DNA from: Perkinsus olseni
Taxonomy: Eukaryota
Length of the DNA: 37,474 bases
Reading direction: 5' to 3'
Assembly: GCA_013115125.1 (NCBI GenBank)
Contig: JABANN010000339.1
Location: forward strand, 1-37,474
The position numbers and the translations under genes are program-made. This document shows, one piece after another, positions 3,240 through 24,393 of the stretch (positions are counted from its first letter, which is position 1; the number at the start of each line of letters is the position of its first letter). The notes beneath the pieces were generated by a model that saw nothing but the letters and a program-made list of their open reading frames with translations, had not been told where the DNA came from and made no database searches.

Positions 3240-5609
3240 TCAGTACGGGTTCGATCCGCGGCCTTGTCCCACTGAAACAATTGAGCATAAAAGGCCTAAT
3301 AACGTGGCGCGGTTACTACTGTTTCCACGAATCTGGCTAAGAGGCAAGCCCATGACTTGAGCGGCGGCCTCTTCTTCGCCCTTTTTAATCTGACGAACGA
3401 ACGAAACTCGAAAGACCATTCGATGGAAGCCTCCTCCTCCTCACCTGAACCTTCAGTCGCTTGCCAGTGTGAGTAGCGAAGCCATCCATTGTACGAACCG
3501 CTTGGACAGCACTCGGTACTTCGTTGAATGATACGAAGCCGTAACCCTTCGACTGGCTCGTCATGTTGTCGACTATGACCCTGAGAAGAACACCCAGCTT
3601 GCCGGGAACTATGATGTGGCGTTCTCAAAAGTACTTGGTGGTAGAGATGGAACCGCAAGATCCGAACTCTCTAGCAAGATCGGCGTCTCTCCACTCGGGC
3701 GGAATGTTGTAGACGAAAATGTTGGCTAAGACAAGCACGTGGTGAGCGACGCCTCGAGCTGGACTGAGCTATTCACCTCCAAGGGGGCCATTCTTCGGGT
3801 GCTGCTGTGCTCTGCCGGACTGCTGACCAGACTGTGACAAGTTCATCTGACCATACCCTCCTCCCGGTCCGAAATTACTGCTCTGCGGCGTCTGCTGGAA
3901 CCTGAGAAAATCGGCCTTTGGTTGGGACATCCCTCGAGCGGGAGGGATCCTCAAACGAACCTTACCCGCCACTCTGGGGCTGCTGCTGTTGCTGTGGAGG
4001 CGGTGGGGGCGGTCCCATGTTTTGGAACTGAGAGGCCGAGAACGCTGCCGACCGAGACATGCCCAGCACCCCAGCTCTCACCTCGAAAGGCACTTCCCAT
4101 TGCGTCTGCCCGGTCTGCGAGTTGTGGTAGTAGTAACGACCGTCAGGGTGGTTAAGGTACTCCGTCCACGGCCCAGCTCGACGAGGTTGAGCTGCTGCGG
4201 GTGGTGGTGGCTGAACCATCAACGCTGCTCATAATAACACACTGTAGTAACCTACAGGTGGCTGGTATCCGCCGGAACGGCTTTGGAACCCTTCTCGCGG
4301 TCCTCCGCCCATCTGAGGCATCCTGTCGAATCCTCCCTGATCCGAAGTGCGGAAAGATCTGTCTCCACCGCCCTGGAACCGATGAGAGTCCGTCTCCTGT
4401 TTATGCGCCAGCCTAACAGCAGTTCACAGATTCTGTTGGACTCCACTCGAAGGAAATTCCCGCCCACCTCTGCTCTCTAGTGTCGGCGCATTTGACGGTG
4501 ATCGGATGGGGCTCGGCGGGGAAGGTATATTTGTCATTCAAAGCTTCAATGGCATTGAGAGCATCGGACTTCTTAGAGTATCTCACGAAGGCCGCCTTGT
4601 TGCCGCTGGCCCTCTTCGACTCCAGACTGTAGGCCTCGGTGACGTTACCGTACCTTCCCCAGAAAACTTACTTCTCTCCAGAAAGCGGGTATCGAGTACT
4701 CACTCATCAAAAATTTGTTTAAGCTCATCGTTGCTAGTGGCCGGTGGTACCTGAACGAGAACATGAAAACCCAATCAACCCACGGAGGCACAGCACTTAC
4801 ATTGCCGACAAACAACTTCTGGGAGAATCCTTCAGTGTCGTCGGGGAGACCAAGTCTCTCGGGCTCGCCATTAGCAAACTGCACTTGAATGAAGCCACAT
4901 GCCTGACAATGAGACAAGAGATGCCACCTGTTCGGCTCGTGAGCGACTTCACACTGACGAGACACGTAACGATGATGCTCAATTGAAGCAATGACAAAGT
5001 AAATGACCTTACACAGTAACGAAGGAGGGAAGATAGAGAGATGGGTAGTACATCGTCAGCTTTATACGTTCCATTAAGAGATTTGATGGCAGTAGCGGCT
5101 TCATGGACAGCACCAAACTTAACGAATGCACAGCCTGGAGGAATACAACAACATCAACATCAAACTGGCTGCTGTGGCAGTGAACGGACAACTCGATGAT
5201 GATGACGATGCTACACTGCCAATCATGGGGTAACATAGGGCTGGTTAACAGACACTAAGGACGCTAGTGAAGGGGGTAGGGCAAAATCATCTAGTCACCG
5301 ACAAACAATCGAGCATGGCCTCGTCACGGGTGAGGCTTGGACCGGTGAGATGAGCTACCTGTCTGTTGCTTGCCGTTATCTTTGGGCCTGATCAGGCCGA
5401 CCTCCTGGACTTCGCCATACCTAAGCGAATCAAGTCATTTTGAGCTGAAGCACGTTCCCGACTGTTTTTCGATGAGATGGAAGCGTTTGCTGCTGCTGCT
5501 GCTGCTGTTAGACTTACGCCTCGAAGAGATCACGAATGTTCTGCTCTTTCCAGGAGACAGGAAGCTTGCCCACGAAAAGGCGTACTGGGATGCGGATCGA
5601 GTCTGCCAT
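3240..5609 (-). CDS. CELF/Bruno-like RNA-binding protein (RRM-RRM-WW-RRM), multi-exon
   Basis: ATG 5609 MADSIRIPVRLFVGKLP (RNP2), GCAFVKF (RNP1); IQVQFANGEPERLG..KLFVG RRM2 with AAFVRY; WW domain WTEYLNHPDGRYYYHNSQTGQTQWEVP; third RRM GPLGANIFVYNIPPEW..RGYGFVSF; ends ..SNPY* at 3240, like the CELF ..PY* terminus. Confidence 0.88.
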
Positions 5610-5751
5610 GCTGTCTTCACTGTCCTCTGCGTCGCCGATCTTCTACGTGCTGTTTTCGTGCACTTGCATGAAATCTTCTGTCGATCACGAAATCGATAAG
5701 ATGTTAGCGAGGGTACATCGGTGAGCAAAGCCAAACCACGAATCAATAACA

Positions 5752-6456
5752 ATGGTTGTCAAGGGAATCGCTAAGAAGGCCTCCAAGAAGGTCGAGAAGC
5801 AGACCTTGAAGTTCGTTGTCGACTGCGAGAAGCCCGTCAACGACAACGTCATCGATGCTGAGTCTTTGGTAAGTTGGTATGGGACTGGAGTTTGGGCTTT
5901 GGTCGTTGAGGCTATGGTTGATACTTGAATGATGAGACCTATTCTTTCCCCGTATGATCAAGATGATTATACCACAGCTGACTAATTCTTTTCTGACCGT
6001 ATCGAACCACTAGCAGCTTCCTTGAGCGAATCAAGGTTTCACTTAACTAGTTCTTAAACTGTTCTTTTTCAGGCCGAGTTCTTCCGCAACCGCATCAAGG
6101 TTGAGGGCAAGACCGGTAACCTCGGTGAGCGCGTCACTGTCGCTAAGACTGGCAAGGCCAAGATTGTCGTCACCGCCGCTGCTCCCTTCTCCAAGCGTTA
6201 CCTCAAGGTAAGCCCAGGGCCACCTTCCCTGGAATCGCCGCGCTAGTCGTGTGCGTTTTCCTAGTAGGTATGCGAAGCGCTCTAGGATCTGCGTCTGTGG
6301 TCGGTTTCTTAATTAGTGATTGCATGTTTTTGTTTTGTGTAGTACTTGACCAAGAAGTACTTGAAGAAGCAGCTCCTCCGTGATTTCTTGAGGGTTGTCG
6401 CCAGCAACAAGAACACTTACGAGCTCCGTTACTTCTCCATCAACCAGGAAGAGTAA
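5752..6456 (+). CDS. RPL22: 60S ribosomal protein L22 (eL22); exons 5752-5868, 6073-6207, 6343-6456
   Basis: Spliced translation [57 protein letters not shown]...[38 protein letters not shown] with GT-AG introns. Confidence 0.97.
5925..6000 (+). ncRNA. Intronic box C/D snoRNA in RPL22 intron 1; probable snR190/SNORD12-like guide to LSU rRNA
   Basis: Box C ATGATGA 5929-5935, box D CTGA 5993-5996; guide TTCTTTCCCCG before a D'-like ATGA is complementary to conserved LSU CGGGGAAAGAA; the D+5 rule lands on the third G of GGGG (yeast G2395 equivalent). Host intron is 204 nt versus ~50 typical. Confidence 0.8.
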
Positions 6457-6570
6457 ATGGTTCCCAAGTCGTGATCATTGGCTAGGTTGTTCCCTGCGAC
6501 CTGCTTGATTCGCGGTTGCGATCTCGGTTTTGTTGTGTGATGCGGTTGTCAATGGGAACTGTTTTGCCTG

Positions 6571-6660
6571 GATGCTAATGATGATTATTTTCATACGTTA
6601 GACTCTGACGCCACGCGCGTGAAGAGAAAACCATTGGAATTCTGCAAATCTGAATGCATC
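6571..6660 (+). ncRNA. Box C/D snoRNA with two guides (5.8S and LSU)
   Basis: Terminal stem GATGC/GCATC; C ATGATGA 6578-6584; D' CTGA 6605-6608; C' GTGAAGA 6619-6625; D CTGA 6650-6653. D guide GGAATTCTGCAA(AT) is complementary to 5.8S TTGCAGAATTCC (Gm75-equivalent site); D' guide CGTTAGACT is complementary to LSU AGTCTAACG. Confidence 0.9.
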
Positions 6661-6672
6661 TAATGAAACCCT

Positions 6673-6757
6673 TGTTGAAGTGATGCGATAAGACATATTC
6701 TTCTTTCCACAGACTAACTGTGAAGAATCGAATCGCTGACTCACCGTCTGATCAGCA
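6673..6757 (+). ncRNA. Box C/D snoRNA (paralog A) with guide to LSU GGAAAGAAGA
   Basis: Stem TGTTGA/TCAGCA; variant C GTGATGC 6680-6686; D' CAGA 6710-6713; C' GTGAAGA 6720-6726; D CTGA 6748-6751; guide TCTTCTTTCC. Confidence 0.8.
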
Positions 6758-6767
6758 CTTTTGCTGC

Positions 6768-6851
6768 CGATGAGATGATGCGAAATAATCTTCTTTCCAC
6801 AGATCCATGTGAAGAAGTTATTCGCTGACTATTCTCTGGCTGATCTCATCG
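6768..6851 (+). ncRNA. Box C/D snoRNA (paralog B), diverged tandem duplicate of the preceding one
   Basis: Stem CGATGAG(A)/TCTCATCG; variant C ATGATGC 6775-6781; D' CAGA 6800-6803; C' GTGAAGA 6809-6815; D CTGA 6840-6843; shares TCTTCTTTCCACAGA and TCGCTGACT with paralog A. Confidence 0.82.
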
Positions 6852-6856
6852 TTAAT

Positions 6857-6928
6857 GGGAATGATGAAGATATTTTCTGTGAGCAAACAAGCATGATAAT
6901 CTCAAACAACTTTAATATACTCTGACCT
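6857..6928 (+). ncRNA. Box C/D snoRNA with SSU rRNA guide
   Basis: C ATGATGA 6861-6867, D CTGA 6922-6925; 16-nt guide AACAACTTTAATATAC is complementary to conserved 18S GTATATTAAAGTTGTT. Confidence 0.88.
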
Positions 6929-6942
6929 TCAATGTAATGATA

Positions 6943-7023
6943 ATGCCAATGATGATCTAAATCAATTATCACATACGTTAGAACGGATTGTAAGTGATTG
7001 ATAACTTCCTATTACTGAGGCAT
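6943..7023 (+). ncRNA. Box C/D snoRNA with LSU guide overlapping that of 6571-6660
   Basis: Stem ATGCC/GGCAT; C ATGATGA 6949-6955; D CTGA 7015-7018; internal CATACGTTAGA identical to the guide in the first cluster member; C'-like GTGATTG. Confidence 0.8.

Positions 7024-17633: not shown

Positions 17634-24393
<6,760 letters not shown>

Follow-up and report, generated by a model that had tools for sequence, protein, structure and literature searches.

How three small nucleolar RNAs (snoRNAs) come to address one segment of ribosomal RNA (rRNA) in different registers, and what a heptamer shared by their second spacers contributes, is the question raised by positions 5920–6851 of a 37,474-nucleotide stretch of Perkinsus olseni DNA (assembly GCA_013115125.1, contig JABANN010000339.1; the whole stretch is referred to as the window). 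The + strand encodes here three related, transcribed box C/D snoRNAs (5920–6003, 6672–6758 and 6768–6851) matching one segment of the large subunit (LSU) rRNA in registers 3 nt apart: the first resides in intron 1 of the gene for ribosomal protein L22e (RPL22e), while the other two form a tandem pair (copies 1 and 2) further downstream. With a probability of about 0.55, judged from sequence, the intronic RNA represents a guide of the SNORD12/SnoR28/snR190 type, the tandem pair its duplicated derivative shifted by 3 nt, and the shared motif an extra base-pairing element.

In all three RNAs, boxes C and D are joined by a terminal stem (5, 6 and 7 bp, respectively), and an internal D'/C' pair is accompanied by an antisense element of at least 9 bp ending 1–2 nt from D'. 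The intronic snoRNA (5920–6003) comprises the stem GATAC (5920–5924)/GTATC (5999–6003), a C box ATGATGA (5929–5935), the D' guide (5942–5953), D' ATGA (5954–5957), C' AAGATGA (5960–5966), the heptamer GCTGACT (5977–5983) and a D box (5993–5996). Copy 1 (6672–6758) is composed of the stem TTGTTGA (6672–6678)/TCAGCA (6752–6757), C box GTGATGC (6680–6686), D' guide TCTTCTTTCC (6699–6708), D' CAGA (6710–6713), C' GTGAAGA (6720–6726), CGCTGACT (6734–6741) and D box (6748–6751), and copy 2 (6768–6851) of the stem CGATGAG (6768–6774)/CTCATCG (6845–6851), C box ATGATGC (6775–6781), the same D' guide (6789–6798), D' CAGA (6800–6803), C' GTGAAGA (6809–6815), CGCTGACT (6823–6830) and D box (6840–6843). 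Hence, the initial annotation, prepared from the letters of the window, was right in describing three related snoRNAs with GCTGACT between C' and D and in placing every element it named, as well as in reading the C boxes of the pair as a variant (RTGATGC); a C at position 7 of this box is a tolerated variant. GCTGACT starts at 5977, 6735 and 6824 and occurs in the window six times on the + and three times on the − strand. The intronic guide TTCTTTCCCCG is found once in the window (at 5942), and the tandem guide at 6699 and 6789, with zero copies on the − strand. The functional D box is in each RNA the second CTGA, which adjoins the terminal stem; GCTGACT, itself holding CTGA, is internal and located 6–9 nt 5' of box D. 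The possibility that this inner CUGA serves as the real box D, closed by a terminal stem of its own, was rejected, its flanks being non-complementary in every copy.

The two tandem copies are identical at 64 of 79 aligned positions, conservation being concentrated in box C and the GA after it, the guide together with D', C' and its following A, TCGCTGACT, and box D. Their terminal stems differ in letters and are nevertheless paired in both, which argues that both copies have been kept as snoRNAs.

For the target, LSU sequences were taken from eukaryotic stretches inside prokaryote assemblies, found via the 17-mer TCAGCGGGGAAAGAAGA; this yielded 41 loci, 20 of them continuing as LSU rRNA (referred to as ribosomal DNA, rDNA), and both of the two loci tested were confirmed as LSU by Rfam. 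In viral contigs, the 17-mer was present at six loci, with rDNA at none of these. All rRNA comparisons reported here are therefore made on foreign eukaryotic LSU, with Perkinsus rRNA assumed to have the universal sequence. The intronic guide forms 12 bp (one of them G·U) with GCGGGGAAAGAA in all eight long rDNA loci, and the tandem guide is a perfect 10-bp complement to GGAAAGAAGA, likewise in eight of eight. Counted from the D' boxes, position D'+5 corresponds to the third G of GGGG in case of the intronic copy (D' ATGA, 5954–5957) and to the second A of AAAG in case of the pair (D' CAGA, 6710–6713 and 6800–6803), both predicted sites lying within GGGGAAAGAAGA. The yeast numbering was anchored on C2392 (a C) and on U2417 and U2421 (both U), as given in excerpts of PMC8536666. 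On this numbering, D'+5 is the equivalent of G2395 for the intronic copy and of A2398 for the tandem pair, the same result as in the initial annotation.

The register of the intronic copy is that of SNORD12 (G3878, yeast G2395), with the arrangement CCCC-N-U-D' as in the Rfam model, whereas the tandem pair is off by +3. Human SNORD12, SNORD12B and SNORD12C are, like the intronic copy, intronic C/D RNAs with a guide that ends in CCCC-N-U-D' and aligns the methylation position with the third G of GGGGAAAG; we take HBII-99 to be SNORD12, and HBII-99B and U106 to be old names of SNORD12B and SNORD12C. According to excerpts of three reports, the SNORD12 family guides 2'-O-methylation of human 28S G3878 (Gm3878; 3899 in newer numbering; PMC8677010, PMC7243338, PMC5027482). 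Human SNORD12 differs from the Perkinsus RNA in the sequence of the second spacer and in its host, the non-coding RNA ZFAS1 instead of RPL22e; moreover, its extra element, as deduced from the Rfam consensus and one rDNA locus (L012), would not face UCAGC but UUGGCGGAA, which immediately precedes it on the 5' side. The same target nucleotide is also used in Arabidopsis, where SnoR28 (25S Gm2396; Arabidopsis numbering is yeast +1) recognizes it in a bipartite manner by a 7-bp major and an 8-bp extra pairing, as stated in excerpts of PMC8053127.

The likeness to yeast snR190 drawn in the initial annotation is apt. According to excerpts of PMC8536666, snR190 has an antisense box 5' of D' on helix 73 around G2395, and part of its box B reinforces the pairing of box A. 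The excerpts further describe snR190 as not methylating G2395 and as acting as a chaperone together with the Npa1 complex and Dbp7. Peculiar to snR190, in the same excerpts, are a dicistronic organization with U14, a box B of 15 nt directed to domain I, and an internal stem-loop of large size.

A methylation at the A2398 equivalent would have no known counterpart of this kind. The initial annotation had named this A as a site without known 2'-O-methylation in model species; neither the yeast nor the human maps are known to contain a methylation there. For Arabidopsis this part of the claim could be extended, since the sites mapped in the stretch are G2392, G2396, G2410, U2411 and U2422: nothing is present at the A2398 counterpart, and, unlike the site predicted for the tandem pair, no methylated nucleotide is mapped between G2396 and G2410. 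A literature search for the names Am2398, Am3902, Am3881 and Am2399 (Am, 2'-O-methyladenosine) did not find them among the papers listed, and matches to A2398/A2399 were unrelated. Nearby sites named in excerpts of the respective reports are U2417 and U2421 in yeast (PMC8536666) and G3878 in human (PMC5027482), and the excerpts of papers on Dictyostelium and Drosophila contained no passage on the helix 73 site. The predicted Am site at the A2398 equivalent is the sole new item of this locus.

The favoured explanation presupposes that Perkinsus 28S rRNA reads UCAGCGGGGAAAGAAGA at helix 73. All three snoRNAs would then bind the 5' strand of this helix at the root of domain V, beside the peptidyl-transferase centre. 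The intronic copy would fulfil the role that SNORD12 has in human, SnoR28 in Arabidopsis and snR190 in yeast; paired with GCGGGGAAAGAA, its D' guide would place the third G at the methylation position. The tandem pair would be a duplicated derivative, the guide of which has probably been shortened by three bases on the D' side and extended by two on the 5' side, so that on GGAAAGAAGA it would present the second A. With this, the suggestion of the initial annotation that a duplicated guide has moved to a new site is borne out as to the paralogous pair and the register (+3), while methylation of the new site stays a prediction. GCUGA(CU) in the otherwise unused C'–D spacer would serve as extra base-pairing element on UCAGC, which adjoins the guide duplex on the 5' side; the tandem copies would have an element longer by one base (CGCUGA:UCAGCG), taking up the G freed by the shifted guide and strengthening a short, A/U-rich guide of 10 bp. 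We infer both this pairing of the motif with rRNA and, at either site, methylation rather than mere binding as in case of snR190.

Extra base-pairing of this kind has been described before. Excerpts of van Nues et al. 2011 (PMC3116282) describe conserved elements of 4–11 bp that do not adjoin box D and occupy whichever guide region is not in use; they pair with rRNA right at the side of the target, an overlap of 1–2 nt with the guide duplex being allowed, and are found especially with short guides; snR190 and HBII-99 are listed there among the snoRNAs concerned. At the present locus, (C)GCUGA complements UCAGC(G), the rRNA bases that border the guide duplex on its 5' side, and, provided that Perkinsus rRNA has the universal sequence, the element flanks this duplex while located 6–9 nt from box D. 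GCUGA:UCAGC overlaps the intronic guide duplex by 1–2 nt, and with CGCUGA:UCAGCG, as in the tandem pair, one G stays unpaired. The copies in which the guide has retreated by 3 nt are those whose element starts one base earlier, with a C pairing to the released G. When cofolded as naked RNA with a piece of rRNA 37 nt in length, the intronic copy uses both the guide and GCUGA, at a ΔΔG of −10.1 kcal/mol. UCAGCG does not vary among the 20 rDNA stretches, as the search itself dictates. Shuffled versions of the intronic spacer share at least 7 letters with copy 1 in 0.9 % and at least 8 with copy 2 in 1.2 % of 50,000 trials. The motif is kept in all three paralogues (P ~0.01 versus shuffles) and in the only available relative, a strain with ~2 % divergence (X8), where the 19 differences in 6067–7022 include two in the pair (6742 and 6758) and zero in the motif. 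Relative to the elements of van Nues et al., conservation is here known among three paralogues and this one strain. A metagenome scan with the pattern TCTTCTTTCCACAGA-N(4-8)-GTGAAGA, which excludes the motif, retrieved no orthologue; its five hits were all due to chance, four residing in one bacterial-looking coding sequence and one having no C box. For the comparison of orthologs proposed in the initial annotation, the outcome is a motif unchanged in the close strain, with a distant orthologue not found in this one scan.

Several findings weigh against the favoured explanation. (i) The rRNA with which the pairings were established is foreign rDNA, not that of Perkinsus. (ii) The match of 5920–6003 to the Rfam family SNORD12/SNORD106 (RF00581; 25.6 bits, E 0.015, full model) is below the gathering score of 43, and the tandem pair fits no family, having no match to RF00581 at E ≤10; at gathering thresholds, Rfam gives zero matches in the whole window. 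(iii) With respect to methylation, the yeast counterpart snR190 is non-methylating in the excerpts of PMC8536666. (iv) A single spacer complements the 12-nt rRNA flanks hardly better than expected by chance (P = 0.27, 0.049 and 0.060; 20,000 shuffles each). (v) Only 5–6 of the 7 shared letters pair, leaving the conserved CU unpartnered; the dinucleotide preceding UCAGC reads AA in 15 rDNA stretches, CT in two, and CA, AT and TA in one each, with AG in 0 of 20, and the exact AGTCAGC is present in 3 of the 20 stretches, at a different place each time. (vi) The divergence of strain X8 is too small for testing constraint on the motif. (vii) Cofolding of the tandem copies with the 37-nt rRNA piece gains only −4.8 and −0.1 kcal/mol. 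(viii) UCGC of the tandem motif complements the GCGA that follows box C, and a hairpin encloses the guide. The bipartite recognition put forward in the initial annotation is accordingly to be divided: (C)GCUGA does complement the adjacent UCAGC(G), but the match covers only part of the heptamer and is near chance. Bipartite recognition at helix 73 is plausible from the sequence, but was already published for the same family as "extra base-pairing". A complement of at least 8 bp common to the three C'–D spacers and recurring at one rRNA position was not found in the eight long rDNA loci. For the D spacer of copy 2, U6 ACAGAGA was considered as target in a by-eye comparison with the U6 sequence; at 7 bp only, this candidate was dropped.

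Points (vii) and (viii) may be taken to indicate that the motif of the tandem pair is mainly structural, with UCGCUGA pairing to UGAUGCGA (box C and following bases) and pairing to rRNA secondary or absent. The internal CUGA could then be an alternative kink-turn (K-turn) partner of box C, or the helix could prolong stem II, with the D spacer looped out; with guide:C' pairing, the antisense element would be locked in a long hairpin, and the variant C of the C box would be present to pair with the G of GCUGA. Indeed, UGAUGCGAU (6681–6689) faces AUCGCUGA (6732–6739) in copy 1 and UGAUGCGAA (6776–6784) faces UUCGCUGA (6821–6828) in copy 2, with five Watson-Crick pairs past the G·A, A·G and U·U positions, the fifth differing in both partners from one copy to the other (U-A vs A-U); the stem with the terminal D box instead provides only one (copy 1) or two (copy 2) such pairs. 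Further in, the tandem guide pairs with C' and the following bases. Copy 2 folds at −25.2 kcal/mol (z −2.9) with an ~18-bp hairpin over the guide, one of 200 shuffles being as good, and copy 1 at −19.8 kcal/mol (z −1.4). A comparable internal stem, antisense box to C', is described for yeast snR190 in excerpts of PMC8536666, a likeness to the tandem pair in particular. However, the intronic copy keeps the same 7-mer without such a helix, since position 7 of its C box is A and its GCUGA is preceded by ACA, so structure alone leaves the sharing of the motif unexplained. Furthermore, the terminal stems adjoin the terminal and not the internal CUGA, so that a standard K-turn needs the terminal D; the both-sided change is a single one between two paralogues only, and folds of naked RNA leave out the proteins of the snoRNA particle. 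We regard a mainly structural role as possible, if rather doubtful.

Hairpin and rRNA pairing could also be combined. The tandem pair might constitute a switchable, snR190-like assembly factor with the antisense sequence held in the ~18-bp internal hairpin and box C choosing between two CUGA partners, the opened form clamping helix 73 with two elements and subsequently giving rise either to a lineage-specific Am two bases 5' of the Escherichia coli 2058 equivalent or to a tether to the LSU 5' end. On the present sequences such a device appears unlikely.

The chance-range complementarity of the motif and the paralogy of all three snoRNAs would also suit a residual similarity from a fairly recent duplication, the motif having no function of its own and the pair perhaps being redundant and heading to loss or to a new target. 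In agreement with this, the intronic copy and copy 2 have a longer common block, GCTGACTA(A)TTCT. Yet the motif block is kept while no alignment of the three copies is possible in the remaining segments outside the boxes, and both tandem copies have intact boxes and compensated terminal stems and are transcribed. We therefore hold a mere leftover to be improbable.

A further candidate for the motif is a distant partner. As a second antisense element, CGCUGACU could pair with AGUCAGCG near the LSU 5' end (domain I) and thereby tether domains I and V, a chaperone like snR190 with or without methylation. One of the five rDNA loci with an LSU 5' end (L051) reads CATATCAGTCAGCGGAGGA at LSU nt ~40–57, a perfect 8-nt complement that would cover all seven shared letters, and in snR190 a 15-nt box B is complementary to domain I, boxes A and B being jointly needed (excerpts of PMC8536666 and PMC11879421). 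The other four LSU 5' ends, however, read AGTAAGCGG (two), AATAAGCGG (one) and AATCAGCGG (one). The LSU of L051 has a group I intron and nothing ties this locus to Perkinsus; in addition, the excerpts place the target of yeast box B in the region that pairs with the 5' portion of 5.8S rRNA, not at the AGUCAGCG site. A domain I tether is thus very unlikely. Apart from this matter, L051 (4316–7897) is a complete eukaryotic rDNA unit in a contig filed as a bacterial metagenome-assembled genome, comprising the small subunit (SSU) rRNA, 5.8S and LSU with the group I intron at 6653–6995; numerous further short contigs from prokaryote assemblies also contain eukaryotic LSU pieces (20 of the 41 loci).

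The host gene RPL22e (5752–6456, + strand) consists of three exons (5752–5867, 6072–6205 and 6341–6456) separated by introns 5868–6071 and 6206–6340, and Pfam PF01776 matches each of the three exon translations (E 1e-3, 7.5e-12 and 2.5e-15). Spliced GT..AG joints (5867>6072 and 6205>6341) were found in RNA contigs from runs X7, X10 and X17, run X7 being recognizable as RNA by adapter ends and spliced joints. In X7, depth is ~10^5 over the RPL22e exons and 441 and 584 over the two introns; the contig at depth 441 spans 5841–6049, including the intronic snoRNA. The whole downstream cluster is contained in one X7 RNA contig (6492–7019, depth 634), the terminus of which coincides with the end of the last snoRNA, while depth beyond 7019 is 25.6. 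Expression of the tandem pair, on which the proposal of the initial annotation depended, is thereby evident at the level of transcription; RNA contigs cover the intron and the entire cluster and by their nature carry no information on mature ends or levels. The spliced mRNA contigs of X10 and X17 terminate at 6482–6514, and coverage of these runs at the RPL22e locus is limited to exons with zero for the cluster, which makes them uninformative on cluster expression. The splice joints in X7 and a depth of the cluster contig like that of the introns fit a read-through precursor; the snoRNA cluster seems to be carried on such a precursor of the RPL22e transcript rather than driven by its own promoter. 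Just 5' of RPL22e, a (CTG)n run is present at 5484–5507, in a stretch covered separately from the gene by X10/X17 contigs (5515–5625).

The tandem pair represents the second and third of five snoRNAs arranged head to tail 3' of the RPL22e stop codon (6570–7022, all on the + strand). The first (snoRNA A, 6570–6661) has a C box at 6578–6584, D' CTGA, C' TGAAGA and a D box at 6650–6653, with a 7-bp terminal stem in a crude C/D scan; its D' guide contains CATACGTTAGA, and a 15-bp complement (two G·U) to LSU GGAGTCTAACGTGTG was observed in rDNA locus L026. The fourth (snoRNA D, 6856–6931; C box 6861–6867, D box 6922–6925) yields weak Rfam C/D hits; its guide at box D forms 11–16 bp with SSU GTATATTAAAG(TTGTT) in rDNA loci L051 and L029, pointing to an 18S guide amid LSU guides. 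The fifth (snoRNA E, 6944–7022; C box 6949–6955, D box 7015–7018) scores 32.9 bits with Rfam snoR122 (gathering 36, E 0.0044) and matches many other C/D families below threshold, including a weak snoU18 match on 6946–7023 (17.5 bits). It has CATACGTTAGA in common with snoRNA A; this sequence is antisense to the LSU segment GAGUCUAACGU, which is presumably the U18-type site, and the D' boxes of A and E are located at different distances from it. SnoRNAs A and E thus add to this cluster another instance of a guide that is duplicated and used in staggered registers.

Elsewhere in the window, a long open reading frame (19106–21466, 786 amino acids) is related to pyruvate:ferredoxin oxidoreductase, with 42–48 % identity to bacterial and dinoflagellate enzymes, 86–98 % to Perkinsus olseni proteins and 52 % to one P. 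marinus protein.

A literature search for Perkinsus together with snoRNA returned no paper on Perkinsus snoRNAs, as judged by title. The locus would extend the helix 73 guide known as SNORD12, SnoR28 or snR190 past animals, plants and fungi into an alveolate parasite. It would also provide an example of a snoRNA retargeted by a 3-nt shift after tandem duplication, and of an accessory pairing element adjusted together with its guide. If true, the predicted Am would add a ribose methyl group in helix 73, two bases from the 2058 equivalent of the macrolide pocket, taking the E. coli 2058 equivalent to lie at the tunnel entrance in this position relative to A2398. Should the RNAs only bind, the idea of an snR190-type chaperone would reach outside the fungi.

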